Shown here in pieces: positions 23,176 through 56,846 of a DNA stretch of 64,000 bases (its first letter is position 1; every line of letters starts with the position of its first letter). The translations under genes were made by a program, and so were the position numbers. The notes under the pieces are model-generated. The model was not told the DNA's origin, ran no database searches, and saw only the letters and a program-made list of their open reading frames with translations. Source of the stretch: Bacteroidaceae bacterium (GTDB lineage: Bacteria > Bacteroidota > Bacteroidia > Bacteroidales > Bacteroidaceae); the NCBI GenBank assembly GCA_017455585.1, contig JAFSZU010000028.1, positions 3,220 through 67,219 on the forward strand. Direction: 5' to 3'.

Positions 23176-23285
23176 ACGTCCGCACGAAAGCATTATCACG
23201 TGCGGACGTATAAGCAAAAACGTGCGCACGAAAAGGCAGGAACGTGCGCACGATATTTTCATCACGGGTGCACTACCCGTTTTCA
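23176..23285. repeat. 22-bp phased tandem array (5 units) abutting stop codon of porin-like gene
   Basis: ACGTSCGNACG cores start at 23176, 23198, 23220, 23242 and 23264, an exact 22-bp spacing. Confidence 0.8.
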
Positions 23286-23288
23286 TGT

Positions 23289-25529
23289 TCAATTGTAGAA
23301 GTTCCAGGAGATGCCGAGGTGGATGGCGGTGGGGTCGATGGGGTAGTGGGGCGCCCAGAAGGCCCGGCCTGTAGATTGGTTGGCATGTTGATAATTAAGG
23401 TACATGCGCACGCGCTTGATGGCCAGGTTGACGTAGGCGTTGATAATGGGGTAGTTGCCTATCTTGATGCGTTCCTGCGAGGCATCCTGCACGGAAAACT
23501 GTCCGAGGAAGGGTGCATAGTCGGGAGCGTAGTAGCTGGTGAAGTAACGCATGTCTGCTCCGAGTTCCACGCGCAGCACCTTGGCCACATGGAAGAGCAG
23601 GTAGGCATTGGAGTAGAGCGAGATGACGGGCAGTGGCAGGGCATCGGCGTTGGAGGTGTGCTGCCATGTGACCTCGTTGTCGAGGTGAAAGATGCCGGCT
23701 GCGAGGTCTTGGCGCAGGGTGGCACTCATGACCTGCACGCTGCTGGTCTGGCGCACGGTGACATCGTGGCTGTAGGAGCTGATGGTGGTGCCGTCGGTGG
23801 CGTAGTTGGGGGTGAGGACGTTGGCGAAGTGTGTGTAGTCTGTGATGTTCTCGACGCCGAAACGGAAGGTGGTGTGTGTGCGGTCGATGGTGAAGAGTCC
23901 TTCGATGCGGGTGCGGGTCTCGTTGTTGAGGTTGTTGTCCCAGTAATGAGCGGCGCTGTGGAAATGCTGGAAATAGAAGGCCGGTTCGACGTTCTTGAAG
24001 TAGGCGTTGGCGGCCAGGTGCACGGTGTCCTTGAAGAGGCGGAAGTTGAGGTCGGCGGTGCCGTGGAGGTCCAGGTTCCCCACTTTCTGGCCGATGACCC
24101 AGAACTCCGCACCGGCACGGTAGTGGACGGTGCGCCCTTGTGTCTTGGAGATTTCTCCGCCCACGCTGATGTTGTTCTCGGTATATTTCTCAAAGACATC
24201 GAGTGTGTCGGAGGTGAGTGGGGAGGGCAGTGTGAAGCGTTCTGCCTGATGAGTGGCAAAGAGGGTGACACCTGCCTTGGCCCAACGGTTGAAGCCCTCG
24301 CGCAACTGCAGACCGAGGGTGTTGCGTAGGTTGCTGGCGATGGTCTGGTCTGTGAAAGCGTTGTAGGAGGAACGCAGGTAGGGGTCGTGAGAGAAATAGG
24401 TGGAGGGTATGCCGCCTGACTTCACAATATTGTCATGCGTCAGCTGTTTGAAGTCGATGGTGTGGATGATGCTGGTGACGGGGATGAACTCCTGGGGCGT
24501 GATCTGCTCCGACTGCCATTGCTGGCGCAGACTGTCGAGGGCTGTGGCGAGGCGGAGGGTGTCGGCTTTGATGACATCGCGGATGCTGTCCGACTTGATG
24601 CGCTGGAGCAGTTCCTGGTCCTTCGGCATCTGCGGTTTCAGGCTGTCCGGGACTTCAAGATCGCGGTTGAATCCGATATGATAGCGGTGAGTGAGAAAAT
24701 ACTCCTGCTGGTCATTACGGTTCCATACGGAGGAGAGGACTGTGGGGATGTCACGGCTATTCACGCTCCGCGGAAAGCTCTCGGGGTCAGTGATATAGAG
24801 GTCGCTCTCGATGCCGCCGTTCTCATACATCTTGGAATGGTCCCAAGAAGCGTAGGCGTGCATCTCATAGCGCTCACCGCGGTGATAGCCGAAGAGCGTT
24901 CCGCCGAACTGTGCATTGGACTGATTGTTGTAGTAGCCGCGGCCGTAGAGGTAATCGAGCTTGAAGCCGATGCCCGACTCCTTGTTGATGTTGGAGGCGA
25001 AGTAGGCCAGCACACGATCCTGCCCGTTCTCGCGCGACCCACATTCGTGGTACTGCAACTGTGTGAGCGGGCTTTTGCAATTGGAGAAAAGGAGATTGCC
25101 GGGGGTGGTGTGGAAGTAATCGTAGGGCTGGAAGAACATGATGTCATCCGTCATCTCGCGATCCAGGAAGTTGCGGTGGAGGCGCGGTGAACCCAGATTG
25201 CCCAGAATATTGTACTCTCCGCGGAAGCCCTCGGTGGCATTGAAGTTCTGGAAGAGGTGGGGCAGGGTGTCGTTGAGGGCCTCGGGCTGCACGGTGCCCA
25301 GCCGCTCGTCGATATGCCACTGGAAGTAGTCGGTGGGGATGACTTTATCGACCTTGGAGGTGTCGCGGCCCCATGTGCTGCGCTTCTGGCCGGAAGGGTC
25401 TGTGGAGCTGTCATCGCCGTTGGTGCCAAAGGTGCCGCCCTGTCCAAAAGTGCTGAAAGGGTCTTGTGCCAAAGCCGGGAGGCTGATGGCAAAGAGGAGC
25501 AGGATGGAAAGGAGAGAGAGATGGCGCAT
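23289..25529 (-). CDS. outer-membrane protein, putative-porin-like beta-barrel
   Basis: 746 aa. Signal peptide MRHLSLLSILLLFAISLPALAQ. Aromatic C-terminal residue (..ISWNFYN). The alternating beta-strand character resembles the Bacteroidota putative-porin family. The family call was made by eye only. Confidence 0.5.
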   Translation of the reverse strand: MRHLSLLSILLLFAISLPALAQDPFSTFGQGGTFGTNGDDSSTDPSGQKRSTWGRDTSKVDKVIPTDYFQWHIDERLGTVQPEALNDTLPHLFQNFNATEGFRGEYNILGNLGSPRLHRNFLDREMTDDIMFFQPYDYFHTTPGNLLFSNCKSPLTQLQYHECGSRENGQDRVLAYFASNINKESGIGFKLDYLYGRGYYNNQSNAQFGGTLFGYHRGERYEMHAYASWDHSKMYENGGIESDLYITDPESFPRSVNSRDIPTVLSSVWNRNDQQEYFLTHRYHIGFNRDLEVPDSLKPQMPKDQELLQRIKSDSIRDVIKADTLRLATALDSLRQQWQSEQITPQEFIPVTSIIHTIDFKQLTHDNIVKSGGIPSTYFSHDPYLRSSYNAFTDQTIASNLRNTLGLQLREGFNRWAKAGVTLFATHQAERFTLPSPLTSDTLDVFEKYTENNISVGGEISKTQGRTVHYRAGAEFWVIGQKVGNLDLHGTADLNFRLFKDTVHLAANAYFKNVEPAFYFQHFHSAAHYWDNNLNNETRTRIEGLFTIDRTHTTFRFGVENITDYTHFANVLTPNYATDGTTISSYSHDVTVRQTSSVQVMSATLRQDLAAGIFHLDNEVTWQHTSNADALPLPVISLYSNAYLLFHVAKVLRVELGADMRYFTSYYAPDYAPFLGQFSVQDASQERIKIGNYPIINAYVNLAIKRVRMYLNYQHANQSTGRAFWAPHYPIDPTAIHLGISWNFYN

Positions 25530-25542
25530 AGAGAGCGAGGAT

Positions 25543-25571
25543 GGCCGCGCGAATACGCGCTACACCCGACC
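25543..25571. repeat. CGCG hairpin box, 5' of porin-like gene
   Basis: GGCCGCGCGAATACGCGCTACACCCGACC. Confidence 0.6.
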
Positions 25572-25645
25572 AGAAGTTTACTGAAGGGTTGTGCAACAGA
25601 GGTTATTGAGGGTCGCCAGAGGGAGAGGTCGCGAAGGTGGTTTCC

Positions 25646-26188
25646 TCACTTTCTTGTGATGATTTCCATGCCGCGGCGGAGGGCTTCCTCGTTGGCGGGA
25701 ATGAGGTGGTGATGGCGCTCGGGGAGGGTCTTGCGGAGGGCGGCAAGGACATCGTCGATATTGACGAGGCCGCGAATCTTCAAGAGACCACCGAGGACAA
25801 TCATGTTGAATCCCTTGGGGTTGCCCATCTCTGCGGCAGCGTCCATGGCATCGATTTCATAGATGTTGATGTCTGTGCGCTTGGGTGGCTCGCTGATGCC
25901 ATAGCCGTCGTAGATGAGGGTGCCGCCGGGCTTGATTTGCGGCTCAAAGCGCTCCAAGGAGGGCTGGTTGAGGATGACGGCAGTGTCGAACTGGCTGACG
26001 ATGGGCGATGAGATGCGCTCGTCGGAGATGATGACGGTGACGTTGGCGGTGCCGCCGCGCTGTTCGGGACCGTAGGCGGGCATCCAGGAGACCTCCTTGC
26101 CCTCGACGAGGGCGGAGTAGGCCAGAATCTTGCCCATGGAGAGGACACCTTGTCCTCCAAAACCGGATATGATGATTTCTTCTGTCAT
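25646..26188 (-). CDS. korC: 2-oxoacid:ferredoxin oxidoreductase, gamma subunit
   Basis: IIISGFGGQGVLSMGKILAYSALVEGKEVSWMPAYGPEQRGGTANVTVIIS is the typical gamma subunit. Confidence 0.85.
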   Translation of the reverse strand: MTEEIIISGFGGQGVLSMGKILAYSALVEGKEVSWMPAYGPEQRGGTANVTVIISDERISSPIVSQFDTAVILNQPSLERFEPQIKPGGTLIYDGYGISEPPKRTDINIYEIDAMDAAAEMGNPKGFNMIVLGGLLKIRGLVNIDDVLAALRKTLPERHHHLIPANEEALRRGMEIITRK

Positions 26189-26949
26189 TGTTCTGTTGTG
26201 TTTTTGAGGTCGCCAATGTGGTAGTAATCAAACATGTGCTCTTCCATCCAGGCATTGGCCTCGATGGGTGTCTTCTTCCAGCCGGAGGAACAGGTGGAGA
26301 CAATCTCCACGAGGCTGGAACCGCGACGGTTGACACTGTTCTCGAAGGCTTGACGGATGGCGCGCTTGGCCTTGCGGATGGCGGCCACGCTGTGCACGCT
26401 CTGACGGGTGACATAGCATGTGCCTTCCAACTGTGCTGCCAGTTCTGTGATTTTCAGGGGATATCCGTGCAGGTCTGCCTGGCGACCGTAGGGGCAGGTG
26501 GCTGTCTTCATGCCCATGAGCGTGGTGGGAGCCATCTGTCCGCCTGTCATGCCGTAGATGGCATTGTTGATGAATATGATGGCGATGTTCTCGCCGCGGT
26601 TGAGGGCATGGATGGTCTCTGCGGTGCCGATACAGGCCAGATCGCCGTCGCCCTGATAGGTGAAGACGAGATGCTCTGGCCAGAGGCGCTTGATGGCAGA
26701 GGCGATGGCGGGCGCGCGTCCGTGGGCAGCTTCCTGCCAGTCGATGTCGATATACTTGTAGGCAAAGACGGCACAGCCTACGGGTGAGACACCTACGGCT
26801 TTCTCCGTGATGCCCATCTCCTCGATGACCTCGGCGATGAGCTTGTGGACCACGCCGTGGGAGCAGCCGGGGCAGTAGTGCATGTGTTCGTCATTGAGGA
26901 GCGCGGGCTTCTGATAGACGATATTCTCTGGTGAGATGATATTTTCCAT
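26185..26949 (-). CDS. korB: 2-oxoglutarate:ferredoxin oxidoreductase, beta (TPP-binding) subunit
   Basis: Re-started at ATG 26949 (MENIISPENIVYQKP..HYCPGCSHG..GDGD..). The track start at 26967 is a TTG inside the TTGTCAAC repeat array. Confidence 0.85.
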   Translation of the reverse strand: MENIISPENIVYQKPALLNDEHMHYCPGCSHGVVHKLIAEVIEEMGITEKAVGVSPVGCAVFAYKYIDIDWQEAAHGRAPAIASAIKRLWPEHLVFTYQGDGDLACIGTAETIHALNRGENIAIIFINNAIYGMTGGQMAPTTLMGMKTATCPYGRQADLHGYPLKITELAAQLEGTCYVTRQSVHSVAAIRKAKRAIRQAFENSVNRRGSSLVEIVSTCSSGWKKTPIEANAWMEEHMFDYYHIGDLKNTTEQ

Positions 26950-26960
26950 AATCTTAATAC

Positions 26961-27057
26961 TTGTCAACTTGTCAACTTGTCAACTTGTCAACTTGTCAAC
27001 TTGTTAACTTGTCAACTTGTCAACTCGTTAACTTGTCAACTGGTTAACTTGTCAACT
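26961..27057. repeat. perfect/near-perfect 8-bp tandem array TTGTCAAC x12 inside kor operon
   Basis: ttgtcaac repeated about 12 times with a few point variants (ttgttaac, tcgttaac, tggttaac). It lies 11 bp upstream of the korB ATG. Confidence 0.9.
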
Positions 27058-27059
27058 AT

Positions 27060-27233
27060 TTAAAACATAAAGCGGACGAAGAACTCCACCACCTTGACAA
27101 CCATGCCGATGCCAATGACAATCAGCCCAATGATGTGGTGGGCTGGGATGGCAAAGTAGAGCACCATGCCGATGATGGCGAGGAGCAGGAAGATGGTGTT
27201 GAGGGTGTTGCGGAGTTCGTCGCGGTTCTGCAT
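27060..27233 (-). CDS. small hydrophobic protein (57 aa) embedded in kor operon
   Basis: Hand-translated: MQNRDELRNTLNTIFLLLAIIGMVLYFAIPAHHIIGLIVIGIGMVVKVVEFFVRFMF*. Two predicted TM helices. It is below the track's 60-aa cut-off and fills the korA-korB gap. Confidence 0.35.
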   Translation of the reverse strand: MQNRDELRNTLNTIFLLLAIIGMVLYFAIPAHHIIGLIVIGIGMVVKVVEFFVRFMF

Positions 27234-27252
27234 TGTGTGGAGAGAGAGGTAT

Positions 27253-27292
27253 TATAGAAGCTATAGAAGCTATAGAAAAGATAGATTCTATA
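27253..27292. repeat. 9-10-bp tandem repeat (CTATAGAAG) at korA stop
   Basis: tatagaagctatagaagctatagaaaagatagattctata. Confidence 0.7.
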
Positions 27293-28388
27293 AGGTGATA
27301 CTGAAGTGGTTCTTGAGGGTGGCGATGACCTCGTCTGGGGTGGGCACGATTCCGCCCATCTTGCCATAGTGGGTGACGGGTGTACGGCCCTCGACGGCGA
27401 GGCGGACATCCTCTACCATCTGTCCGGCATTGATCTCGAAGGTGAGGATGCCACGTACCTTCTGGGAGAGTTCGCGGATGCGGTCGTAGGGGAAGGGCCA
27501 GAGCGTGATGGGACGCAGCAAGCCCACGCGGATGCCCTCGGCACGGAGGTCGCTGATGGCCTTCTGCGCGATGCGTGCAGCAGAGCCGAAGGCCACGATG
27601 AGGTAGTCGGCATCCTCGGTCTGCAGTTCCTCATAGCGCACCTCGTTCTTGCGGATCTCGGCGTACTTGGCCTGCAGGTGGAGGTTGTGCTGCTCCATGG
27701 CCTCGGGACGGAGTTCCAGGGAGGTGATGACGTTGATGGGTCGCATACCCTTCCGTCCGGTGCTGGCCCAGGGGCACTGGGCAATGACTTCCTCGTCGGT
27801 GCGACGGGGTTTGAAGGGAGGCAGCGTGACTTTCTCCATGACTTGCCCGATGACACCATCGGAGAGAATCATGGCGGGAATGCGGTACTTGAAGGCCAGC
27901 TCGAAGCTGAGATCCACGAAGTCGGCCATCTCCTGCACGGTGGAAGGGGCCAGCACGATGATGTAATAGTCGCCGTTGCCGCCGCCACGGGTGGCCTGGA
28001 AGTAGTCGCCCTGTGAGGGCTGGATGGTGCCCAGGCCGGGGCCGCCGCGCTGCACGTTGACGATGAGACCGGGAATCTCTGCGCCTGCCATGTAGGCGAT
28101 GCCCTCTTGCATGAGAGCCACGCCGGGGCTGGAGCTGGAGGTCATGACGCGCTTGCCGGCGCCGCCGCCGCCATAGAGCATGTTGATGCTGGCGACTTCG
28201 CTTTCTGCCTGGAGGACGACCATGCCGGTGGTCTCCCAGGGTTTCTGGGCGGCGAGGGTCTCGAGGATTTCACTCTGTGGAGTGATGGGATAACCAAAAT
28301 AGCCATCGCACCCGCAGCGGATAGCTGCATGGGCGATGGCCTCGTTACCCTTCATCAGTAGTATATCGTTGTTTGCCATAATGGGCAC
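27288..28388 (-). CDS. korA: 2-oxoglutarate:ferredoxin oxidoreductase, alpha subunit
   Basis: LMKGNEAIAHAAIRCGCDGYFGYPITPQSEI... is typical of the alpha subunit. Operon context with korB/korC and a ferredoxin gene. Confidence 0.85.
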   Translation of the reverse strand: MPIMANNDILLMKGNEAIAHAAIRCGCDGYFGYPITPQSEILETLAAQKPWETTGMVVLQAESEVASINMLYGGGGAGKRVMTSSSSPGVALMQEGIAYMAGAEIPGLIVNVQRGGPGLGTIQPSQGDYFQATRGGGNGDYYIIVLAPSTVQEMADFVDLSFELAFKYRIPAMILSDGVIGQVMEKVTLPPFKPRRTDEEVIAQCPWASTGRKGMRPINVITSLELRPEAMEQHNLHLQAKYAEIRKNEVRYEELQTEDADYLIVAFGSAARIAQKAISDLRAEGIRVGLLRPITLWPFPYDRIRELSQKVRGILTFEINAGQMVEDVRLAVEGRTPVTHYGKMGGIVPTPDEVIATLKNHFSITL

Positions 28389-28421
28389 GGCTGTTAGCCG
28401 TAGTTTAGAGTTTACTCAATT

Positions 28422-28655
28422 TTAATTCTCAATTTTCTTGCGATAGACGGTGATGCAGCCGTCTGGACAGACGATGGCACAGGATGTGCATCCAGTGCAT
28501 GCGTCTTGGTTTGTTTGCTCGACATAGCGGTATCCTCTGCGGTTGACCATCTTGTCTGCGAGCTGGATGATGTTGAGCGGACACGCGACGACACAGAGCG
28601 AACAACCTTTGCAGCGTTCTGTGTTGACGATGATGGCTCCTTTCATTTTTGCCAT
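28422..28655 (-). CDS. 4Fe-4S dicluster ferredoxin-type subunit
   Basis: Two CxxCxxCxxxCP motifs (CKGCSLCVVACP and CTGCTSCAIVCP). Confidence 0.8.
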   Translation of the reverse strand: MAKMKGAIIVNTERCKGCSLCVVACPLNIIQLADKMVNRRGYRYVEQTNQDACTGCTSCAIVCPDGCITVYRKKIEN

Positions 28656-28711
28656 AAGCGGTGTGTTTTTGTGTGTATGGGCTGCAACGTGTTGCAGCGT
28701 AGGGGGAAACT

Positions 28712-28933
28712 TTATGGGTTGTAATATTCTTTGCAGCGGTAGTCCATGATTTGCTGCAGCATCTCGCGTGCGTGTACGGCCGGTGAGGCAGGATCGAGCG
28801 CAGCGGCCTGGTCGTATGCATTAAGAGCAAGGCTCCACTGCTGCCGTTTGCGGTGCTGGTTGCCCTGCTCATAGAGTGCTGCTGCCTGTTGTGCAGATGA
28901 TGTGGTTGACTCCTGTATGGTGTCTGTGTTCAT
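28712..28933 (-). CDS. small TPR-like protein heading the kor operon
   Basis: 73-aa ORF with one TPR-like unit (AAALYEQGNQHRKRQQWSLALNAYDQAAALDP). A TACCTTTG box lies 23 nt upstream. Confidence 0.45.
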   Translation of the reverse strand: MNTDTIQESTTSSAQQAAALYEQGNQHRKRQQWSLALNAYDQAAALDPASPAVHAREMLQQIMDYRCKEYYNP

Positions 28934-28955
28934 GGACGTTTGCTTTTTCGGGGTG

Positions 28956-28963
28956 CAAAGGTA
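28956..28963 (-). promoter_or_regulatory. Bacteroidota -7 box (TACCTTTG) for kor operon
   Basis: TAnnTTTG match 23 nt upstream of ATG 28933. Confidence 0.5.
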
Positions 28964-29032
28964 GTGAATATTGGTGAAATAATCCTCGAATCTGAGTAAA
29001 AAGTGTTTGGAGCCTCTTGTTTTTAAGGGTTT

Positions 29033-29070
29033 TTAGAGAAATACGCCACCTTCCAGACAGGAAGACGGCG
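29033..29070 (-). terminator. putative terminator after DUF4468 gene
   Basis: CGCCGTCTTCC-TGTCT-GGAAGGTGGCG followed by TATTTCTCT on the minus strand. Confidence 0.4.
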
Positions 29071-29101
29071 TATAATAACGGGAATCGGGCCCTCGGTTAG
29101 G

Positions 29102-29698
29102 TTACTGAACGAAGGTCGCCGACGAGGGTTTCTCGAAGGCAGCACGGGCTGCTGTGAAGATCTCTGCCACGCGGTCAATGGTCTTGCGGCGGAACTTGCC
29201 GCTGCGGGGATAGAGCTTGGTGCCAGCCTTGTTGATGGCTTCTTTGTCGCTGATCCATTCCTCGGCCTTGTAATGTTCACCGCCTTTGCCCTCGTTATCG
29301 AACTGATACTGATAGGTAATCTGGGTAATGGTGAGGGCCACTTTGCTGTCAGGGGTGCACTGTGCCGTGATGCGATAACGGAAGAAGCAGTGGTCCCAGT
29401 TGAGGAAGACTTTCTTGAAGGTCATGATTTCCTCGACCTTGGCCACGGTGGTGAAGTCCTCGTCGGAGACGAGGCGTGTGCGCAGGTCCTGGCGGCCGTC
29501 GGACACCAGTTGCTTGACGAAGGACTGCATGACGGGGTAAATGTCTGCCTGTGTCTTGCCGGGAACAGAGAAGGTCTGGGTGAAGATGATGATGCCGTTC
29601 TGCTCAGGGACGGCACCTGCGAGATACTTCTGGTCCTCTACCTTGGCACTGGCCAGGAGGGGGAGGGTGAGAAGGAGAGTGAAAAGGATTTTCTTCAT
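29102..29698 (-). CDS. DUF4468-like secreted protein
   Basis: Signal peptide MKKILFTLLLTLPLLASA. YLAGAVPEQNGIIIFTQTFSVPGK..ITQITYQY resembles the DUF4468 (TBP-like fold) family. Call made by eye. Confidence 0.55.
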   Translation of the reverse strand: MKKILFTLLLTLPLLASAKVEDQKYLAGAVPEQNGIIIFTQTFSVPGKTQADIYPVMQSFVKQLVSDGRQDLRTRLVSDEDFTTVAKVEEIMTFKKVFLNWDHCFFRYRITAQCTPDSKVALTITQITYQYQFDNEGKGGEHYKAEEWISDKEAINKAGTKLYPRSGKFRRKTIDRVAEIFTAARAAFEKPSSATFVQ

Positions 29699-29731
29699 TA
29701 TTTTAGAGGGATTGGTTGATGGCTGGGGAGT

Positions 29732-29760
29732 TTCCGCGCGAATACGCGCGACACCCGACC
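29732..29760. repeat. CGCG hairpin box, 5' of DUF4468 gene
   Basis: TTCCGCGCGAATACGCGCGACACCCGACC. It is followed by a GGTTGCGGAGAGAG x4 tandem at about 29778-29835. Confidence 0.6.
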
Positions 29761-29845
29761 GGGGGGATTAAAGGGGTGGTTGCGGAGAGAGGGCTACAGG
29801 GGAGAGGTTGCGGAGAGAGGTTGCGGAGAGAGGCTGCTGGTGAGG

Positions 29846-31066: not shown

Positions 31067-31074
31067 AATACTCT

Positions 31075-31207: not shown

Positions 31208-31211
31208 GACA

Positions 31212-31967: not shown

Positions 31968-32012
31968 TGGGTTTTGGTTTTATTCCTGGAGGGAATTAAT
32001 TGGGGATTGATT

Positions 32013-32038: not shown

Positions 32039-32041
32039 TAA

Positions 32042-36501: not shown

Positions 36502-36508
36502 TTATCTT

Positions 36509-45036: not shown

Positions 45037-45192
45037 CGAGCCTGATTTGCAATGTCGAGTTTGCAAAACCAGAGCTTTTGACCCACGAATCAATGAATTT
45101 ATTTCAAAAATAAGGATGTTTTGAAAAATGTATGTTGCAAAACATGTTTTCAGGGTTACATGCTGACGCTTTCACCCGTATCTTTGTGTCAG

Positions 45193-45283
45193 TTATCCTG
45201 AAAACAATCTTTTTACCTTAAACAGGCTAATACCTAAAGATTAAGCATTGGGGTCGCTGTGAAGCGACCCCTGTGTTGTTCTG
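45193..45283 (+). ncRNA. candidate small RNA (promoter box + ~90 nt + terminator hairpin)
   Basis: TATCTTTG box at 45179-45186. GGGGTCGCT-GTGA-AGCGACCCC hairpin at 45250-45271, followed by TGTGTTGTTCT. No ORF. Sits in a convergent intergenic region. Confidence 0.3.
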
Positions 45284-45373
45284 CACGTTTGATGCTTTTC
45301 AGCTGTGCTTTTGGCTCTTTTCTGGCTGTGCTTTTGGCTCTTTCCTGGCTGGTGGGTATATATGGACTTTTGA

Positions 45374-45483
45374 ACGTGCGGTCGTGATGCCAATTACGTG
45401 CAGACGTGATGCCAATTACGTGCGGTCGTAAAGGCAATGACGTGCGGTCGTGAAGGCAATGACGTGCGGACGTGTTGTGAGCG
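45374..45483. repeat. 22-bp phased tandem array (5 units) abutting stop codon of glycosyltransferase gene
   Basis: ACGTGCGGTCGTGATGCCAATT-type units start at 45374, 45396, 45418, 45440 and 45462. Confidence 0.85.
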
Positions 45484-45494
45484 ACCCCTGCTTG

Positions 45495-47843: not shown

Positions 47844-47857
47844 TTATTATTTAATGG

Positions 47858-49369: not shown

Positions 49370-49372
49370 GTC

Positions 49373-49996
49373 CTAAACAAGTATCTCCTTGAAGTTGTCT
49401 ATCACCTCATCTGCCAGCGGCGCAATGACCTCGCGAGGGTTGGTCGTGGCCAGACCAACGACATGGCACCCCGCCGCGCGACCGGCCTTGAGACCGTTGA
49501 TGCTGTCCTCAAACACCGCGCAGTCGGCAGCCGGAACGCCGAAGAGCCGCATTCCGAGCAGATAGCAGTCCGGTGCGGGCTTGGAGGCAGAAAAGTCTTC
49601 GCTGGTGAGGATTCGGTCAAAAAGTTGTGGCAGCTCAGGGTGGGCACTCATGACCTGCCGCATCTTCTCCTGATTGCTGCTGGTGACAATGGCCATGGGG
49701 ATGCCCAGTGCATGCAACTGCATGATATATTCCCGGGCACCGGGGATATACTCATAATGCATCTGGGCCTCGAACGCATCCAGCCGCTGGGTAATCTGTG
49801 CCTGCTTGGCTTCCTCACCCGCGAACCAGCGTTCATAAATCTGCACAAGTGTCTGCCCCTTGATGAGTTGACAGAAATTGGGGACCTCTGGATGATATTC
49901 GTGACCGATGCCACCCCAGAAGACAGAATACTGACTTTCTGTGTCCAAGATGACCCCATCAAGGTCAAAAAGGGCCGCTTTTGGCTGTTTTTGCAT
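49373..49996 (-). CDS. HAD-superfamily hydrolase (beta-phosphoglucomutase-like)
   Basis: Re-started at ATG 49996. Motif [14 protein letters not shown], then ..VTSS.. and [15 protein letters not shown]. Confidence 0.75.
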
Positions 49997-50097
49997 TGCC
50001 TTACGTAGATTTTGGGCGCAAATATAGTGTTTATTTGGGAGAAATATGTACTTTTGCGCCCGAATTTTTGAATATAACACTTTTTACACTCATAATA

Positions 50098-50919
50098 ATG
50101 GCTGGATACCTCGTTGACGATACGCGCAAAGTGACCACGCACCGTCTTTATGAAATGAAACAGAACGGCAAGAAGATTGCCATGCTCACCTCCTATGACT
50201 ACTCTATGGCACGCATCGTGGACGGAGCAGGAGTGGACGTCATCCTCGTGGGAGACAGCGCCTCAAATACCATGGCTGGCAACGTCACAACACTGCCCAT
50301 CACGCTGGATCAGATGATTTATCACGCCCGCAGTGTGGTGCGTGGTGTGACACGCGCCCTCGTGGTCTGCGACATGCCATTCGGCACCTATCAGGTAGAC
50401 CCGCAGGATGCCGTGCGCCATGCCGTGCGCATCATGCAGGAGACGGGCTGCGATGCCCTCAAGCTGGAAGGCGGTGTGGAGATCATTCCTGCCATCAAGC
50501 TGATTCTCGACGCCGGCATACCGGTCATGGGACATCTGGGACTGACACCCCAGAGCATCAACAAGTTCGGGACCTACGCCGTGCGGGCCAAGGAACAAGC
50601 TGAGGCCGACAAACTGCGTTCCGATGCCTGTGCGCTGGCCGAAGTCGGCTGCTTTGCCCTGGTGCTGGAGAAGATTCCGGCCGTCCTGGCCACAGAGGTG
50701 ACACAGAGCATACCCATTCCCGTTATCGGCATCGGAGCTGGTGGCGGCTGTGACGGACAGGTGCTTGTCGTGCATGACATGCTGGGGATGACCAAGGGCT
50801 TCTCGCCCAAGTTCCTGCGCCGCTATGCCGACCTCAGCACTGTCATCACCGATGCTGTGGGGCAATATGTCACCGACGTGAAGAACTGTGACTTTCCCAA
50901 CGAGAACGAACAGTACTGA
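50098..50919 (+). CDS. panB: 3-methyl-2-oxobutanoate hydroxymethyltransferase
   Basis: Re-started at ATG 50098. [36 protein letters not shown] is classical PanB. Confidence 0.9.
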
Positions 50920-51024
50920 GCAAGGACATCACGAGAACACACAGCCCGCAGAGCAAGGACAACATAAAAGCGGAACACATGATTGTGCAAATGCATCATG
51001 TGTTCCGCTTTTGTGATGAAACAT

Positions 51025-51642
51025 TTATCGGATGAAGTTGGTGCGGAGCGGTTGCTCCAGTTGTGGATGGCCGTCTTGGCGGATATTCAACCGCTGGAGC
51101 ATCCACGCCATATTGCGTCCGAGGGTACGCATCGTCTGCATCCCCTCTTCATCCTGCTCCACTTGACCCGGAGTCTGCCCATAGGCCATGTTCCAGTACT
51201 GTGAACTCACAACAGGCATGTTCAATATCGTGAAGTACTTGTTCAGACGGTCGAAGGCTGCCGAGGCACCGCCGCGACGACAGACAACCACGCTGGCACC
51301 GGGCTTGAAACGCAAGTCGGCACCCAATGAATAGAAGACTCGGTCGAGCAGAGCACAGAGCGAGCCGTTGGGACCGCCATAATAGACAGGCGAGCCGATG
51401 ATGAGACCGTCAATCCCCTCCTTGATGGAACGCAGGACCCGATGATACAAGTCATCATGGAACGTGCAGCGACCTGTGCGGCCGCACATGGCACAGGCGA
51501 TGCAGCCTTGCACAGCCTGCTTGCCGATGCTGATGATTTCTGTGTCAACGCCTTCGGCATTCAATGTCTGGGCGACTTCACTTAGCGCGCGAAAGGTGTT
51601 TCCGTGTTCGCGCGGGCTACCGTTAATCAATAGGACTTTCAT
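51025..51642 (-). CDS. flavodoxin-like NAD(P)H-dependent FMN reductase / iron-sulfur flavoprotein
   Basis: Re-started at ATG 51642 (MKVLLINGSPREHGNT...CIACAMCGRTGRC...IIGSPVYYG). Confidence 0.7.
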   Translation of the reverse strand: MKVLLINGSPREHGNTFRALSEVAQTLNAEGVDTEIISIGKQAVQGCIACAMCGRTGRCTFHDDLYHRVLRSIKEGIDGLIIGSPVYYGGPNGSLCALLDRVFYSLGADLRFKPGASVVVCRRGGASAAFDRLNKYFTILNMPVVSSQYWNMAYGQTPGQVEQDEEGMQTMRTLGRNMAWMLQRLNIRQDGHPQLEQPLRTNFIR

Positions 51643-51671
51643 TTCTTTGCGATATTTCAATAATTGTAGAA

Positions 51672-53225
51672 TCAGAAAGGCAACGTGTCGTCTGAGGGAT
51701 GGCTCCCGTCTGTGGGCCATGTGCCGTAAAGGTGATAATAGTAATAGTCCAAAAAGTCCGTTAAGGGTGTTCCCACCGGCAGGATCTGACCGAAGAGTTC
51801 CATCAGGTTGGTGGCTTTGAGCTGCACGGCCTGCTTCATCTCATCCAGCGATGCTTCATACTCCTGCAACTCATAGCTACAGGCAGCCAGATAGGTCCAC
51901 GTGTTGGCGTGCAACTGTTGTTCAGAGACGAAATCAGGAGAGGTTTCTGCATCCGTGTCCATCGAGGCGGGGGCGGTGAATGGCGTACTCAGCACAAGGC
52001 GGAAATAGTCTTGCGCCAGCTGGAAATATCCGGTATCAAATAATATCTGGCCACCTTGATAATAGATAAATGGCAAATCCGACGGATACTGGCGGGCACA
52101 CTGTGTGAGCACTGCCACCGCTTGCTGAGGTTGATTGTTCTCGGCATAGACACGAGCCTTCAGGAATTGGTAGTCTGTCTGATCACCACTTTGCCCGAAC
52201 TGTTGTTCCGCCTGTTCCAGAAGTTGCAGGGAGCCTTCGACATCATGCAACTCAGAGAGAATATGTGCGTGATGTTCCATGATAGCTTGTTGTTCCGTGC
52301 TCATTCCCCCTGAGAGTTCTTCTGCCTGTTCTACCAATCGTAATGCTTCATGAATCTCACCCTTGTCATACATACAGAAGGAGTCATAGAGGTAATTCAA
52401 CTCGTAGGCAGGGTTCATGACTTCCAGCTGTTGGTAAAGCTCATGGGCTTCATCACTGTTGCCTTGTTGCATGAGAACCCAGGCCTTGAGCTGCAGGGCG
52501 CGTTCGTCCTGTGGGTCCACGGCGAGTGCATAGTCACAACTCTCCACAGCCTTTTCAAACTGCATGAGACCGCAGTAGGCTTCACATCGCCAGTTCCAGG
52601 CTTCCACATAGAAGGGGTCTATGTCCAAGAGTCGTTCTATGTAGGAAATGGCCTGTTCATAGTCTTCTTGTGCCAGTAGAATATCTGCGCGCACCTGCCA
52701 CGTCTTGAACCATTTGGGGGCCATCTGCTCCAGCACGTCTGCCAGTTCCTGCGCCGATGAGTAATCTTCATAGTCTATGAAGATGTAGGCACTGTCATAG
52801 TAGAAATAGTCAAGATCCTCGTCCACAGAATCTGCCATGTCCAACAAATAGCGCATCGCCTCATCGTTCCTTTGCTGGCGAATCAACAGTTCTGCCCGCA
52901 GGAAGATGACCTCGCGATGCTGCTGGTCATCGATGGCATCACATATCAGTTGTGCCGTTTCTGTGTCTCCGTCCAGCATTCGCTTGCGCGCCCTGAAGAT
53001 TTGAGGATCCACGGCATCGGGATGCAGTTGCAGGGCCATGTCTATTACCTCTGCCGCAGCCTCATCATCGTGGCACACCATGGCATAATACTCTGCCACG
53101 TCGGTGAGCTCGTCGGCATCCATATAGATGGCAGAACGATTCTCCCTGGAAGCCTCGTACTTCGACAGAATCTCCTTGAACTCAGAAGATTCGAAATAGC
53201 TAAGGTCATCGTCCTGCCGCATCAC
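51672..53225 (-). CDS. tetratricopeptide-repeat protein
   Basis: 517 aa, acidic, with many TPR-like A/Y/L-patterned 34-mers. Confidence 0.6.
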   Translation of the reverse strand: MMRQDDDLSYFESSEFKEILSKYEASRENRSAIYMDADELTDVAEYYAMVCHDDEAAAEVIDMALQLHPDAVDPQIFRARKRMLDGDTETAQLICDAIDDQQHREVIFLRAELLIRQQRNDEAMRYLLDMADSVDEDLDYFYYDSAYIFIDYEDYSSAQELADVLEQMAPKWFKTWQVRADILLAQEDYEQAISYIERLLDIDPFYVEAWNWRCEAYCGLMQFEKAVESCDYALAVDPQDERALQLKAWVLMQQGNSDEAHELYQQLEVMNPAYELNYLYDSFCMYDKGEIHEALRLVEQAEELSGGMSTEQQAIMEHHAHILSELHDVEGSLQLLEQAEQQFGQSGDQTDYQFLKARVYAENNQPQQAVAVLTQCARQYPSDLPFIYYQGGQILFDTGYFQLAQDYFRLVLSTPFTAPASMDTDAETSPDFVSEQQLHANTWTYLAACSYELQEYEASLDEMKQAVQLKATNLMELFGQILPVGTPLTDFLDYYYYHLYGTWPTDGSHPSDDTLPF

Positions 53226-53263
53226 TTCATTTCAATCTACTATCACTCATATTTTAATTAAAC

Positions 53264-53480
53264 ACCACGGATTACACGGATTAAACAGATTCTTTCTGCT
53301 TCTCATCTGTATAGTTTTCATCTGTATTTCACAGATTTCCTAAAATGGGAAGGACACTGTGTAATCAGCTTGTATATATGATAGCACTTGCGTAACGTTT
53401 CACTCGAAAATCTGTGAAATACAGATAAAAATTGAAAGCCAGGGACACGTAATCCGTTTAATCTGTGTAATCTGTGGTGC
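53264..53480. mobile_element. MITE-like element with CACAGATT-repeat terminal inverted repeats (long form)
   Basis: Left CACCACGGATTACACGGATTAAACAGATTC. Right CACGTAATCCGTTTAATCTGTGTAATCTGTGGTG. An internal ATCTGTATTTCACAGATTT / AATCTGTGAAATACAGAT inverted pair is shared with the 20549 copy. Confidence 0.75.
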
Positions 53481-53503
53481 ACATGACAAACGAAGAATGA
53501 TTC

Positions 53504-55357
53504 TCAGCTCTTCAGCCCCACGGTCTTGTTGAAGACAAGGTGGTCGGGGGTGGAATCGGTGTCAATGTTGAAGTAGCCGATGCGCTGGAACTGGAGGTAT
53601 GTCAAAGCGGGCATGTCACGCACAAACTTCTCGATGTAGCAGTGCTGGAGCACGTGCAGCGAATCGGGGTTCATCATCTGCTGCATGGCCTCGATGGCAG
53701 AGAGGCCCTCGCCCTGCAGGCGTGCCAGTTCGTCACGCGGGTTCTCCACCTGCCACAACCGTTCATACATACGCACCTCGGCGGGCAGACAATGTCCGCA
53801 ACTGAGCCAGTGCAGGGTCTTGCCCTTGATCTTGCGGTCGGCACCGGGCAGTCCGCTGCGCGTCTCGGGGTCGTAGGTAGCATAGATGGTGGTCACGTTG
53901 CCGTCGGCATCCTCGTCGAAGGGGTGCTCCTCGTCGCACTTGATGATGTAGGCGTTCTTCAGGCGCACTTCCTTGCCGGGAGCCAGGCGCATGAACTTCT
54001 TCTCGGCCACCTTCTGGAAGTCGTCGCGCTCTATCCATAGCTCACGTGAGAACTCGATAGTATGTGTGCCGTCCTCCGGGCGTTCAGGGTTGTTGACGGC
54101 TTCCAACTCCTCGACCTGTCCCTCCGGGTAGTTGGTAATCACGAGTTTGACAGGGTTGATGACCGCTGCCACACGGGTGGCGCGCTGGTTCAGGTCCTCG
54201 CGCACGGCACTCTCCAAGAGAGCGAAGTCGTTCAAGGCATCGTATGTGGTGTAGCCAATCTTCTGGATGAAGTTGACAATGCTCTCGGGCGAATAGCCAC
54301 GACGGCGGAAGGCGCAGATGGTGGGCATACGCGGGTCGTCCCATCCGCTGACGAAGCCGTTCTTGACCAGTGCCAGCAGGTTGCGCTTGGACATGAGCGT
54401 GTAGTTGAGGTTCAGCTTATTGAATTCTGTCTGGCGCGGGCCTTGATAAGTTGAAAGTTGAGAGTTCTCCAAGTGTGGAGCGACCAAGGTCGAGCGGAAA
54501 GTTGAAAGTTGACTACCGCTCTCTGCCTGGCTACCGCAATCGGCAATCCACTCTCGCATCCACGTGACGAAGAGGTCATACAAGGGTCGGTGCTCCACAA
54601 ACTCCAGCGTACACCATGAGTGGGTGACACCCTCTAAGTAGTCGCTCTGTCCGTGAGTGAAGTCATACATGGGATAGGCGTTCCAGCGGTTGCCTGTCTT
54701 CAGGTGCGGGATGTTCAACACGCGGTAAATCAGCGGGTCGCGGAACAGCATATTGGGGTGAGCCATGTCTATCTTGGCACGTAGCACAAGGGTGCCCGGC
54801 TCGCACTTGCCACTGTTCATGTACTCGAACAGGCGCAGGTTCTCCTCCACGGGACGGTCACGGAAGGGGCTGTTGGTGCCCGGAGAGGTGGTCGTACACT
54901 TCTGCTGGGCAATCTGCTCGCTTGTCTGTTCATCCACGTAGGCACGCCCCTGCTTGATGAGCCACACGGCGAAGTCCCACAACTGCTGGAAGTAGTCGCT
55001 GGCATAATAGACATTGGCCCACTGGAAGCCCAGCCACTTGATGTCCTGCTCAATGGCTTCGATGTACTCGGTGTCCTCCTTCTGCGGGTTGGTGTCATCG
55101 AAGCGCAGGTTACACGTGCCGCCATACTTCTTGGCCAGTCCGAAGTCCAGTGCGATGGCCTTGGCGTGGCCGATATGCAGGTAGCCATTGGGTTCAGGCG
55201 GGAAGCGTGTCTGGAACCTTCCGCCGTTCTTGCCTTCGGCCAGGTCGTTGATTACTTTCTGTTCGATGAAGGAGGCAGCACGCCCGGCCTCACCCCCCGT
55301 CCCCCTCTCCAAGGGGCGAGGGGGAGTAGTTACATTTGAAGAGTTGTTTTCGTTCAT
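53504..55357 (-). CDS. glnS: glutamine--tRNA ligase
   Basis: Class I HIGH motif (PEPNGYLHIGHAKA), LMSKR (KMSKS-like), and a conserved C-terminal anticodon-binding region. The start is set at ATG 55357 (MNENNSS). It contains repeat-derived inserts (see findings). Confidence 0.9.
   Translation of the reverse strand: MNENNSSNVTTPPRPLERGTGGEAGRAASFIEQKVINDLAEGKNGGRFQTRFPPEPNGYLHIGHAKAIALDFGLAKKYGGTCNLRFDDTNPQKEDTEYIEAIEQDIKWLGFQWANVYYASDYFQQLWDFAVWLIKQGRAYVDEQTSEQIAQQKCTTTSPGTNSPFRDRPVEENLRLFEYMNSGKCEPGTLVLRAKIDMAHPNMLFRDPLIYRVLNIPHLKTGNRWNAYPMYDFTHGQSDYLEGVTHSWCTLEFVEHRPLYDLFVTWMREWIADCGSQAESGSQLSTFRSTLVAPHLENSQLSTYQGPRQTEFNKLNLNYTLMSKRNLLALVKNGFVSGWDDPRMPTICAFRRRGYSPESIVNFIQKIGYTTYDALNDFALLESAVREDLNQRATRVAAVINPVKLVITNYPEGQVEELEAVNNPERPEDGTHTIEFSRELWIERDDFQKVAEKKFMRLAPGKEVRLKNAYIIKCDEEHPFDEDADGNVTTIYATYDPETRSGLPGADRKIKGKTLHWLSCGHCLPAEVRMYERLWQVENPRDELARLQGEGLSAIEAMQQMMNPDSLHVLQHCYIEKFVRDMPALTYLQFQRIGYFNIDTDSTPDHLVFNKTVGLKS
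54449..54513. repeat. AGTTGAAAGTTGA-type direct repeats inside glnS CDS
   Basis: aagttgaaagttgagagtt (54449-54467) and aaagttgaaagttgac (54498-54513). These are the reverse complement of the 33264 repeat type. Confidence 0.7.
55287..55329. repeat. GC-rich hairpin element in glnS N-terminal extension
   Basis: GGCCTCACCCCCCGTCCCCCTCTCCAAGGGGCGAGGGGGAGTAG. Encodes ..TPPRPLERGTGGEAG.. Confidence 0.7.
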
Positions 55358-55382
55358 ATTTAATCTGTTTGCTATTCTTCTA

Positions 55383-55658
55383 TTATTTATCATCATAATG
55401 CCCGTATGCAGTTAGCACAAGAACCACGACTTGCATATCATGAATTTCATAGACAAGACGGTGTTTCTTGGTGATGCTGCGTGACCACTGTCCCGCACGG
55501 TCACCACTAAGCTGGTGGGGATGACCTGTGCCAGTGCGTGGATGCTCCATGAGTTCTTTCAACAAATCACCCAATTTAGAGAAAGCCTTTGGTTCACTCT
55601 TCTTCAAGCGAGCCATTCCCTCTTGAGCCAAAGAGGTATAATCCAAGTCATAAATCAT
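55383..55658 (-). CDS. type II toxin, Txe/YoeB family
   Basis: ..LLKELMEHPRTGTGHPHQLSGDRAGQWSRSITKKHRLVYEIHD..VLTAYGHY parallels the E. coli YoeB core ([26 protein letters not shown]...HY). Confidence 0.75.
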   Translation of the reverse strand: MIYDLDYTSLAQEGMARLKKSEPKAFSKLGDLLKELMEHPRTGTGHPHQLSGDRAGQWSRSITKKHRLVYEIHDMQVVVLVLTAYGHYDDK

Positions 55659-55915
55659 AAGCTATTGAGAAAGGCTTCCAGCTCCTCATGTGAATGGATG
55701 GTCTTGTACTCTCCCCGCTCATACTGAGCTTTGGCACGGTCAACCTTCGCAAAGAACTCTTCCTTGGTCATCAGCGTAGGGTCTTGCTGTTTGGCAGCGG
55801 CACGCTCCCGCTCCACGTCGTGGATGAGGCGGTCTGCCAGCCACTTCTTGTTTCTCGTACTCAGCGACAGAGACTGCAGAAAGTCCCAGATGCCGTTCAT
55901 CGTAATCGTTGCCAT
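55655..55915 (-). CDS. putative antitoxin of the YoeB-like toxin
   Basis: Re-started at ATG 55915 (MATITMNGIWDFLQ...). 86 aa. It overlaps the toxin gene by 4 bp. Charged helical C-terminus. No family recognised. Confidence 0.45.
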   Translation of the reverse strand: MATITMNGIWDFLQSLSLSTRNKKWLADRLIHDVERERAAAKQQDPTLMTKEEFFAKVDRAKAQYERGEYKTIHSHEELEAFLNSL

Positions 55916-55919
55916 CTTT

Positions 55920-56573
55920 TTAATCTTTAATGTTTTGCAAATACTGAGCATAGCGGGCGATGTACTTGCCCAGGATGTCAAACTCCAGGTTCACCACGGT
56001 TCCCTCCTTGATGCTGTGGAAGTTGGTGTTGTCAAAGGTGTAGGGGATGATGCAGACAGCAAAAGCCCCTTTCCCGGTTCCTCCTGTGGGGGGGAGAGAC
56101 ATGGTGGGTCGGCAGACGGTCAGCGACACGCCATTGACACAGACAGAACCTTTATCTACGGTGAAGTAGCCGCGGGCGACCATCTCGGCGTCTGCATCAT
56201 ACTCAAAGGTGAACTCGTGGCTGCCCGCCTGGTCTTCCACACGGATGCAGCGCGCCGTCTGATCCACATGCCCCTGCACGATGTGGCCGTCCAGACGGCC
56301 TCCCATCTGCATGGAGCGTTCCACGTTCACTTCGTCGCCCACTTGCAGCAGACCCAGATTGGAGCGTTCCAGTGTCTCGCGCATGGCTGTAACCACATAG
56401 GTTCCAGCATCGAGGTCGATGCGCACCACGGTGAGGCACACGCCGTTGTGTGCAATGCTCTGGTCAACCTTCAGCTCGCTGGTGAAGGGACAACGGAGCG
56501 TAAAGTGCAGGTTGTCCTGCTCACGTTCTATAGCCACCACAGTGGCCGTGCTTTCTACAATTCCTGAGAACAT
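55920..56573 (-). CDS. ribE: riboflavin synthase (alpha chain)
   Basis: MFSGIVESTATVVAIE...SIAHNGVCLTVV...VNVERS...GHIVQGHVD...GVSLTV..IPYT. This is the duplicated lumazine-binding domain pattern. Confidence 0.85.
   Translation of the reverse strand: MFSGIVESTATVVAIEREQDNLHFTLRCPFTSELKVDQSIAHNGVCLTVVRIDLDAGTYVVTAMRETLERSNLGLLQVGDEVNVERSMQMGGRLDGHIVQGHVDQTARCIRVEDQAGSHEFTFEYDADAEMVARGYFTVDKGSVCVNGVSLTVCRPTMSLPPTGGTGKGAFAVCIIPYTFDNTNFHSIKEGTVVNLEFDILGKYIARYAQYLQNIKD
56062..56113. repeat. GC-rich element (degenerate) inside ribE CDS
   Basis: AGCCCCTTTCCCGGTTCCTCCTGTGGGGGGAGAGACATGGTGGGTCGGC. Confidence 0.5.
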
Positions 56574-56694
56574 ATATTAGTTGAGAGTTGGACAACAGAA
56601 ATAACGGAAAAGAAGCGGATTTGTTTCCGGGTATTTCAGATGGTTTCTGTGATTTCCGTTGTAGAGAGTTGAATGTATGATGAATATTTGCGTG

Positions 56695-56702
56695 CAAAGG
56701 TA
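56695..56702 (-). promoter_or_regulatory. Bacteroidota -7 box (TACCTTTG) upstream of ribE
   Basis: TAnnTTTG match about 120 nt upstream of ATG 56573. Confidence 0.35.
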
Positions 56703-56758
56703 CATATTTTTTATTTATTTGCGCGCAAAAAAAGAATTATTTATTGCATTGCTTTTGA

Positions 56759-56846
56759 ACGTGCGCACGTGAAGGCAATTGCGTGCGCACGTGATGCCGT
56801 TCACGTGCGCTCGTGAATGGCTTTGCGTGCGCTCGTGATTTTCGCA
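56759..56846. repeat. 22-bp phased tandem array (4 units) abutting stop codon of cstA
   Basis: RCGTGCGCNCGTGA.. units start at 56759, 56781, 56803 and 56825. The first unit is preceded by CTTTTGA, as at 45367. Confidence 0.85.

Follow-up and report, generated by a model that had tools for sequence, protein, structure and literature searches.

The BrickBuilt repeats of Porphyromonas gingivalis are minisatellites carried inside a MITE, or miniature inverted-repeat transposable element, with leader and tail segments and IS5-type inverted ends. The 23-nt unit is conserved in its first half and variable in its second, is present in 1-23 copies at 19 dispersed and strictly intergenic loci, and is gained and lost between strains; reports of it are limited to P. 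gingivalis and P. gulae (Klein et al., 2015, PMC4596501). BrickBuilt is the closest known kind of element to the repeats described here, which lie in a 64,000-nt stretch of DNA (the window) from a rumen metagenome-assembled 'Bacteroidaceae bacterium' whose proteins include MBQ7494417 and MBQ7494436. Three arrays in this window are built from 22-bp units in exact phase, each unit joining a 12-bp core, ACGTGCGnnCGT, to a 10-bp spacer, and together they hold 13 solid units. Arrays with the same core occur at many loci in several genera, prefer the 3′ ends of genes, change in length by whole units, are patchy among relatives and are conserved only in the core. We hold with middling confidence that they constitute a dispersed, non-coding intergenic minisatellite of Bacteroidales, akin either to BrickBuilt or to the repetitive extragenic palindromic (REP) sequences and bacterial interspersed mosaic elements (BIMEs) of other bacteria, with a core that would be kept constant by a sequence-specific protein.

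The likeness to BrickBuilt, drawn from its published description since the brick sequence appears as a logo figure, extends to the bacterial order, a similar unit length, the lack of unique spacers, a half-conserved unit, whole-unit changes and the spurious open reading frames (ORFs) called on the repeats, as on the third array of the window. The window family differs in its 22-bp unit and in a core common to several genera; neither a leader nor terminal inverted repeats were found for it, nor target-site duplication as a general feature. REPs and BIMEs of Enterobacteria and Pseudomonas are likewise short, quasi-palindromic extragenic units enriched at gene 3′ ends or between convergent genes; they are clustered, species-specific in sequence and patchy among relatives, can form hairpins in 3′ untranslated regions (3′-UTRs), and make up mosaics of several repeat types, as do the relatives of our arrays in Phocaeicola. 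However, REPs alternate in orientation within BIMEs whereas units of the window family run head-to-tail at 22 bp, the sole inverted pair in the family being units 1 and 2 of array 1; a REP is an imperfect palindrome of ~20-40 bp, whereas the family core has 12 bp and is often not palindromic; and the genes called over ~43 kb of the window include none for a REP-associated tyrosine transposase (RAYT). The arrays most resemble selfish or near-neutral REP and BrickBuilt repeats. Literature searches on the 12-mers, on 22-bp repeats and on REP or other intergenic repeats in Bacteroides returned nothing relevant except BrickBuilt, and this 22-bp repeat family of gut and rumen Bacteroidales is apparently undescribed. 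The earlier note on this DNA, made from the sequence alone, had likewise been unable to place the arrays in a known repeat class, and with neither a curated RNA family match nor a description in the literature searched that position stands.

The three arrays of the window

The exact 22-bp phasing described in the earlier note was confirmed by our own reading of the sequence and by Tandem Repeats Finder, which returned a period of 22 at 23198-23253, 45374-45474 and 56760-56838, with 77-87% matches. Array 1 (23176..23263, + strand) has four units, starting at 23176, 23198, 23220 and 23242, with the cores ACGTCCGCACGA, ACGTGCGGACGT and, twice, ACGTGCGCACGA; the asymmetric core is in opposite orientation in units 1 and 2, giving an 11-bp perfect inverted repeat. 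A fifth unit had been counted at 23264, but that segment (23264..23285, +) matches the core at only 8 of 12 positions and consists instead of a hairpin with a 7-bp stem, ACGGGTGCACTACCCGT (23264-23280), followed by the T-rich tail TTTCATGTT, an arrangement that is terminator-like on the + strand. Array 2 (45374..45483, +) has five units, starting at 45374, 45396, 45418, 45440 and 45462, with the cores ACGTGCGGTCGT (three times), ACGTGCAGACGT and ACGTGCGGACGT and the spacers GATGCCAATT (twice), AAAGGCAATG and GAAGGCAATG. The four units of array 3 (56759..56846, +) start at 56759, 56781, 56803 and 56825 and carry the cores ACGTGCGCACGT, GCGTGCGCACGT, ACGTGCGCTCGT and GCGTGCGCTCGT; the two halves of this array form an inverted repeat of 36 nt with 78% complementarity. 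Each unit had been said to contain a palindromic core or a near variant of it. Near variants, one or two bases away, are indeed the rule, but a perfect palindromic core is found just once, at 56759.

The arrays stand well clear of chance. Allowing up to two mismatches, ACGTGCGCACGT has 15 matches in the window, against a mean of 3.2 (maximum 8) in shuffled sequence, and 13 of the 15 are phased array units. Exact CGTGCGnnCGT cores also number 13 over both strands, and every one lies inside an array, so that the window holds no isolated core. Both spacer types (GAAGGCAAT and GATGCC) are common to arrays 2 and 3, which indicates that these two arrays have a common ancestor, and the 'nn' positions hold a different variant in each of the three arrays, a sign of local expansion.

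A regular alternation of conserved and variable parts is also a property of clustered regularly interspaced short palindromic repeats (CRISPR). CRISPR arrays have repeats of 21-48 bp and unique spacers, whereas here the repeat has 12 bp, the 10-bp spacers are variants of one another, no leader is present and the genes called over ~43 kb of the window include no cas gene; the earlier rejection of a CRISPR reading is therefore upheld.

Distribution and the conserved core

Near-identical contigs from other samples keep the window arrays and otherwise differ by single-nucleotide polymorphisms only, while L005, a metagenomic strain of the window species, is missing exactly 22 bp, one unit of array 2. 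Beyond this species, a loose two-core pattern scanned against a collection of genomes (species representatives) gave at least 108 matches, mostly chance matches in high-GC genomes or (CGTG)n microsatellites. Among the matches listed are phased arrays that share the core, each with a spacer of its own, from Phocaeicola coprophilus, P. barnesiae, several metagenome-assembled genomes (MAGs) of Prevotella and Prevotellaceae, Porphyromonas canoris, rumen MAGs of Bacteroidales and Bacteroidaceae, and one Saprospiraceae MAG. A three-core pattern in metagenomes found at least 120 loci; ~55 of the 120 listed belong to one human-gut family of Phocaeicola type, with the unit TCGTGCGGTCGT + TGGGGCYGRA, which occupies at least 16 distinct loci among the matches listed. 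A species-specific pattern gave 0 matches in Joint Genome Institute (JGI) metagenomes, the three-core pattern gave 0 in viral contigs, and BLAST of the arrays against plasmid (72,556) and phage collections gave none. Four loci from Acidobacteriota MAGs (L039, L089, L105 and L113) carry dense ACGTGCG(G)ACGTGC runs with periods of 8 and 15 bp, in which the heptamer resembles the Bacteroidales core but the architecture differs.

The number of units changes readily. A single Phocaeicola locus has 3, 4, 5, 5 or 7 units in different samples, another has 5 or 9 and a third 3-5; a 7-unit array lies beside the same 483-aa gene as the locus with 5 or 9; and array sizes across families span 3-17 units. 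The comparison between strains that the earlier note had suggested thus yields whole-unit differences, both in L005 and at Phocaeicola loci (3-9 units).

Within the unit, the core and the spacer have very different fates. Measured over 60 unique Phocaeicola units, information content is 1.2-2.0 bits at each core position and mostly 0.4-1.0 in the spacer, where three positions reach 1.6-1.9. Positions 4-5 of this core are always TG and positions 8-9 are GT in 56 of the 60 units, so that the Phocaeicola core is not palindromic. Core symmetry is accordingly not a family trait: arrays 1 and 3 have a 12-bp palindrome as their core, while that of array 2 and of those 56 Phocaeicola units is asymmetric. 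Neighbouring cores are spaced by 22 bp in 159 of 161 pairs, in 98 of which the spacing was imposed by the search pattern. With the hairpin not kept, the features common to the family reduce to CGTGCGnnCGT and the head-to-tail 22-bp register. Conservation of the core across genera alongside free spacers implies recognition by a sequence-specific protein, be it a mobilising enzyme or a host factor, and the core offers a concrete bait for finding such a protein in a group with poorly charted non-coding DNA.

These features bear directly on whether the arrays could be independent neutral minisatellites, each raised by local replication slippage, for instance at a terminator hairpin, with no common origin, recognition protein or function. 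Whole-unit gain and loss and the separate core variant of each window array are as slippage would predict; the genome is also rich in other short tandem repeats, and relatives carry unrelated 22-23-bp arrays at comparable places. Yet the chance of finding CGTGCGnnCGT in a random 22-bp repeat is ~22 x 4^-9, or ~1e-4, and at least 10 spacer families carry it, which independent slippage cannot explain. Together with the two spacer types shared by arrays 2 and 3, a 45-bp tail shared by Phocaeicola loci and the very different rates at which core and spacer evolve, this makes an origin by independent slippage very unlikely.

The fixed period raises a different alternative, in which a conserved Bacteroidota DNA-binding protein would occupy ACGTGCGnnCGT on one helix face every 22 bp and serve a host function at gene 3′ ends, such as topology control or a roadblock, by likeness to plasmid iterons, to gyrase and IHF at E. 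coli BIMEs, and to operators of hybrid two-component systems (HTCS). Plasmid iterons (R6K, F, RK2, pSC101) are direct repeats of 17-22 bp with a ~22-bp period, a conserved and a variable part and 4-7 copies; they sit at one origin beside rep, whereas the window arrays are chromosomal, lie at many loci and at gene 3′ ends, and differ in number from strain to strain. In the HTCS operators predicted for Bacteroides, direct repeats follow one another at ~21 bp, as with two 12-bp sites separated by a 9-bp spacer (Ravcheev et al., 2013, PMC3878776). These AraC-type operators likewise combine a conserved 12-16-bp site with a free spacer over two helical turns, but they come as two copies in the promoters of specific regulons, whereas the window family has 3-17 copies, mostly at 3′ ends. 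The constancy of the core across genera beside a free spacer, the 22-bp spacing of nearly all adjacent cores (with the proviso above on the pairs that the search forced) and the dispensability of palindromy are all consistent with phased binding, as are the spacing of the HTCS operators and the prominence of 22 bp among Bacteroidales tandem periods, unrelated units included (see below). Orientation is not fixed with respect to transcription, which also favours a role at the level of DNA.

On the other side, the arrays are missing from close relatives, which a conserved host function would not lead one to expect; the cores of the window include no isolated single sites, and no paired ones, at promoters; copy number is unconstrained over 3-17 units; the HTCS and SusR site tables of PMC3878776 do not contain the core; and simple duplication of a unit also yields a fixed tandem period. 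We therefore consider phased binding in the service of a host function to be tentative and rather unlikely. The iteron-like binding proposed in the earlier note fares in the same mixed way: the conserved core, the free spacer and the period of about two helical turns agree with it, while three loci within 34 kb, the lack of a rep gene among the called neighbours and the lack of any plasmid match speak against a plasmid-type iteron. A possible link to the Mpi invertase site (ARACGTWCGT), which only part of the core resembles, was dropped.

The absence from relatives was seen in contigs taken via homologues of three neighbouring genes (71-89% protein identity in the contigs used), where no array lies at the corresponding gene ends in any contig fetched. 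Some 145 kb of unselected DNA from relatives with 59-89% protein identity to the neighbouring genes contains two isolated cores and no clear family member, along with two degenerate look-alikes, GATGCGGACGT... in L238 and ACTTGCGGCCTT... in L242. Tandem arrays of other kinds are present in the same DNA, and 4 of 21 with a period of at least 14 have a period of 22; two of the four are the look-alikes and two are unrelated to the core (TTGTCTCACCAGTGAGACACGG at L240 11402-11464 and AACCCTTAAGGGTTCACGCCAC at L247 17906-17964). Period 22 is found in 11 of 32 other arrays in pattern-selected Bacteroidales loci and in 14 of 170 arrays at non-Bacteroidales control loci, an excess with a Fisher p of 6e-4 when pooled and of 0.12 for the unbiased subset alone. 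In L082, 17 copies of GAAAAAAAATTTTCGTAGGTAA run in phase into a core-type array. From the loci behind this observation (L238, L240, L242, L247, L012, L067, L085, L082, L100, L006, L138 and L146), 22 bp is the commonest tandem period in Bacteroidales loci even where the units are unrelated, which we treat as a lead and not a result. The excess in unrelated arrays hints at a common length-setting mechanism, of which none is described in the literature searched. One way to accommodate it would be a clade-wide, iteron-like chromosomal system, comparable to gyrase or IHF at BIMEs, in which a protein conserved in Bacteroidota polymerised on phased arrays at gene 3′ ends, other lineages using the same 22-bp ruler with different cores. 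Such a shared ruler would, if true, explain the 22-bp mode of the unrelated arrays; we regard this system as unlikely.

Position, strand and folding

All three window arrays abut the stop codon of a minus-strand gene, as the earlier note had observed. Array 1 is flanked by a + strand PLD-type gene, which ends at 23095, and a minus-strand Porin_10 gene, and array 2 by a + strand gene of 273 aa with no Pfam match and a minus-strand glycosyltransferase gene, so that in both cases the genes converge; array 3 occupies the gap from the cstA stop codon to the start and promoter region of ribE, both genes being on the minus strand. The stop codons are at 23289-91, 45495-97 and 56851-53; with the degenerate unit of array 1 included, the last full unit of each array stops 3, 11 and 4 bp short of them, respectively. 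This placement does not extend to the family as a rule, since elsewhere the nearest gene may be on either side and on either strand. The heptamer CTTTTGA that had been reported before two of the arrays is indeed present directly before arrays 2 (45367..45373, +) and 3 (56752..56758, +) and is the sole element common to one side of the window arrays; array 1 has CTTTTCA 25 bp upstream, followed by the spacer-like GATGCCATTG.

Across the distinct Phocaeicola loci, by crude gene calls, 8 arrays lie between convergent, 6 between codirectional and 2 between divergent genes (p=0.027 against an expectation of 25% convergent), and once the window loci are added, convergent pairs make up 10 of 19 (p=0.009). 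Where the two genes are codirectional, the sense strand is usually the C-rich one, in 6 of 7 cases for the window and Phocaeicola (p=0.06) and in 9 of 11 for all families (p=0.03), which is suggestive only. At a Phocaeicola locus with an AraC-type gene, the sense strand is the G-rich one and the array begins 17 nt past the stop codon, and one related array lies upstream of a cobalamin riboswitch. The G-rich strand falls on the G-skewed strand at ~12 of 17 loci, a figure that is not significant and is confounded by gene orientation. Thus, of the bias in position and orientation that the earlier note had envisaged, the preference for 3′ ends and convergent genes is borne out and a single fixed orientation is not. 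Even in the window, the three arrays are probably not all transcribed on the same strand, since array 1 lies 5′ of a hairpin that resembles a terminator on the + strand, and arrays 2 and 3 lie 3′ of minus-strand genes.

The folding of the arrays was compared with that of shuffled sequence. Arrays 1 and 3 alone reach z scores of ~-7 to -8 (-3.9 and -2.7 with flanks), and their minus strands, in which C about equals G, reach ~-6.4 to -6.9. They fold well because the palindromic cores of adjacent units pair into stems of 10-12 bp. Array 2, the core of which (ACGTGCGGTCGT) is not self-complementary and which for that reason folds little, has z scores of -1.5 to -2.3 alone and ~0 with flanks. The Phocaeicola arrays have z scores mostly between 0 and +3, their C-rich strand being less structured than shuffles (up to +3.2). 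With C 40 and G 22 on its mRNA strand, array 2 fits, together with the Phocaeicola arrays, the C-rich, G-poor and unstructured profile of a Rho utilization (rut) site, which spans at least 70 nt of the transcribed strand; arrays 1 and 3, by contrast, are strongly structured. A scan for intrinsic terminators picked out, beside the arrays, only the hairpins at 23264-23280 and 45250-45271, and none of the arrays themselves; no U-tract follows the arrays. Rfam 15 has nothing in the window at gathering score and nothing overlapping the arrays in 17 related loci, and relaxed searches gave no match at arrays 1 and 2 and, around array 3, only weak noise from eukaryotic microRNA and small nucleolar RNA families. 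Readings as Z-DNA or as G-quadruplexes were set aside, neither purine-pyrimidine alternation nor G-runs being conserved across the family.

The structured 3′-UTR suggested by the earlier note is therefore a fair description of arrays 1 and 3 but not of array 2, where folding is weak, or of the unfolded Phocaeicola relatives. More generally, the arrays could act at the level of RNA, either as stacked hairpins that terminate transcription or block 3′ exonucleases or, on the C-rich strand, as an unstructured site for Rho loading. The folding of arrays 1 and 3, the perfect inverted copies in units 1 and 2 of array 1, the start of arrays 3-25 nt past stop codons, the sense-strand tendency in codirectional pairs and the composition of the Phocaeicola arrays can each be read in favour of an RNA element. 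But array 2 and nearly all Phocaeicola arrays are without significant structure, and positions 4-5 show no compensating change; the hairpin and the unstructured readings exclude one another within one family; opposite strands appear to be transcribed, array 1 belonging to the 3′-UTR of a + strand gene and arrays 2 and 3 to minus-strand genes; and the G-rich sense strand at the AraC locus, the array upstream of the riboswitch, the two divergent loci, the missing U-tracts and the lack of any Rfam match all sit badly with it. A role for the family as an RNA element is accordingly distinctly unlikely.

Composite blocks, mobility and neighbouring features

Array 2 is part of a larger block. A second tandem array, of 2.5 copies of a 23-bp unit, CTTTTCTGGCTGTGCTTTTGGCT (45295..45351, +), lies 22 bp to its left, and the two together are bracketed by an 11-bp perfect direct repeat, AGCGACCCCTG, with copies at 45263..45273 (+), forming the 3′ arm of the terminator hairpin at 45250-45271, and at 45480..45490 (+), between array 2 and the glycosyltransferase stop codon. 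By eye the repeat extends imperfectly to ~27 bp. It duplicates the loop-proximal arm and tail of the hairpin, and its length was reached by 0 of 200 shuffles at array 2 and by 1 of 200 for the composite block, which looks like the product of one insertion or duplication event at a terminator. Window positions 45178-45277 (+) match the 3′ part of Rfam RF04184 (BTnc060) specifically, though below threshold (53.6 bits, E 1.3e-7, gathering score 228.9), with a 30-nt stretch nearly identical to the Bacteroides consensus. The match ends in the same hairpin, part of which is duplicated beyond array 2; BTnc060 is an uncharacterised small RNA of B. thetaiotaomicron, validated by northern blot (bioRxiv 10.1101/2025.09.08.672848).

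Comparable associations are seen in Phocaeicola. Several loci have in common a tail of ~45 bp after the array, consisting of a T-run, the hairpin GCATTGACCAGTCAATGC, GAAGGTA and a final core; beyond the tail their flanks are unrelated, so that array and tail behave as one dispersed block. In L085, L067 and L012 a core-type array adjoins a second, different 22-bp array. Phocaeicola-type intergenic regions are mosaics of several repeat types. A second repeat family adjoins the core-type arrays in L135, L138, L146, L177 and L006; it is made of 21-22-bp units of AAAGCCCGA(A/G)GGCTTTT and AAACGTTTCG motifs, some of which resemble bidirectional terminators.

The bracketing repeat at array 2, and the precedent of BrickBuilt as a minisatellite inside a MITE (PMC4596501), would be in keeping with a classical MITE or insertion sequence (IS) fragment having terminal inverted repeats and target-site duplications. 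At the 17 other testable loci, however, comprising arrays 1 and 3 and those of Phocaeicola, direct repeats in the flanks are non-significant (p 0.06-0.96; longest common string, 200 shuffles); inspection of the flanks revealed no terminal inverted repeats, the Phocaeicola elements beginning and ending with a core in direct orientation; and there is no transposase nearby and no match in phage or plasmid collections or viral contigs. We consider such an origin highly improbable. That the repeats might turn out to be pieces of a known insertion sequence, which the earlier note had named as an outcome that would undo its reading, is by the flank and inverted-end checks largely excluded for the family.

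What we favour instead, a REP- or BrickBuilt-like dispersed minisatellite, might be assembled as follows. Modules would be seeded in dispensable DNA near terminators; slipped-strand mispairing or unequal recombination would afterwards lengthen and shorten them, the core being kept constant by a sequence-specific protein, either the enzyme responsible for spreading or a host DNA-binding protein. Effects on the host would be secondary and local; where cores are palindromic, as in arrays 1 and 3, the 10-12-bp stems between adjacent units could, within a 3′-UTR, slow 3′ exonucleases or help termination.

Several observations weigh against this dispersed minisatellite. The genes called over ~43 kb of the window include no transposase, integrase or RAYT, flank direct repeats are significant at array 2 only, and with no terminal inverted repeats either, nothing observed points directly to a mechanism of transposition. 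None of the relatives fetched keeps the downstream synteny, so that the sites without arrays are not clean empty sites. Both large scans were selected for the core and the 22-bp phase, and hence abundance and conservation of phase across taxa are not measured without bias; the gene calls at metagenome loci were crude, namely ATG-started ORFs of at least 90 aa. Finally, conservation of the core across Bacteroidales families could equally reflect a conserved host function.

The arrays are frequent in abundant gut and rumen Bacteroidales, where they break assemblies, attract spurious gene calls and vary in length between strains, which makes them relevant to annotation and usable, potentially, for telling strains apart. 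At L234 321-464 (-), on a JGI contig with the counterpart of array 3, public annotation puts a 47-aa ORF on the repeats; as the 22-bp period is not a multiple of 3, this ORF is almost certainly an annotation artefact. The window carries a YoeB-type toxin gene (55383-55658) with an upstream antitoxin-like ORF (55383-55981 for the pair); the toxin gene is also present in L234 but is absent between ribE and glnS in the same-species contigs L001-L003.

Other repeats are dispersed through the window. A MITE-like element is present in two copies, at 20550-20673, upstream of a SIS/CBS gene, and at 53264-53478, downstream of glnS; each of its ends is formed by three tandem 9-mers, CACAGATTA on one side and TAATCTGTG on the other, in inverted orientation, and an internal GAATCTGTGAAAT.CAGATAA is common to both copies. 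An 8-bp unit, ACTTGTCA, is repeated 12.4 times with 89% matches at 26959-27057. Heptamer arrays occur as inverted pairs 70-165 bp apart, with (TAATTCA)n facing (AATTATG)n at 31074-31106/31176-31207, and there are further heptamer arrays at 61126-61158 and 62473-62505. In a relative, (ATTCACA)n faces (AATTGTG)n upstream of araA (L240 1219-1249/1413-1444), and such inverted pairs may be binding sites for regulators.

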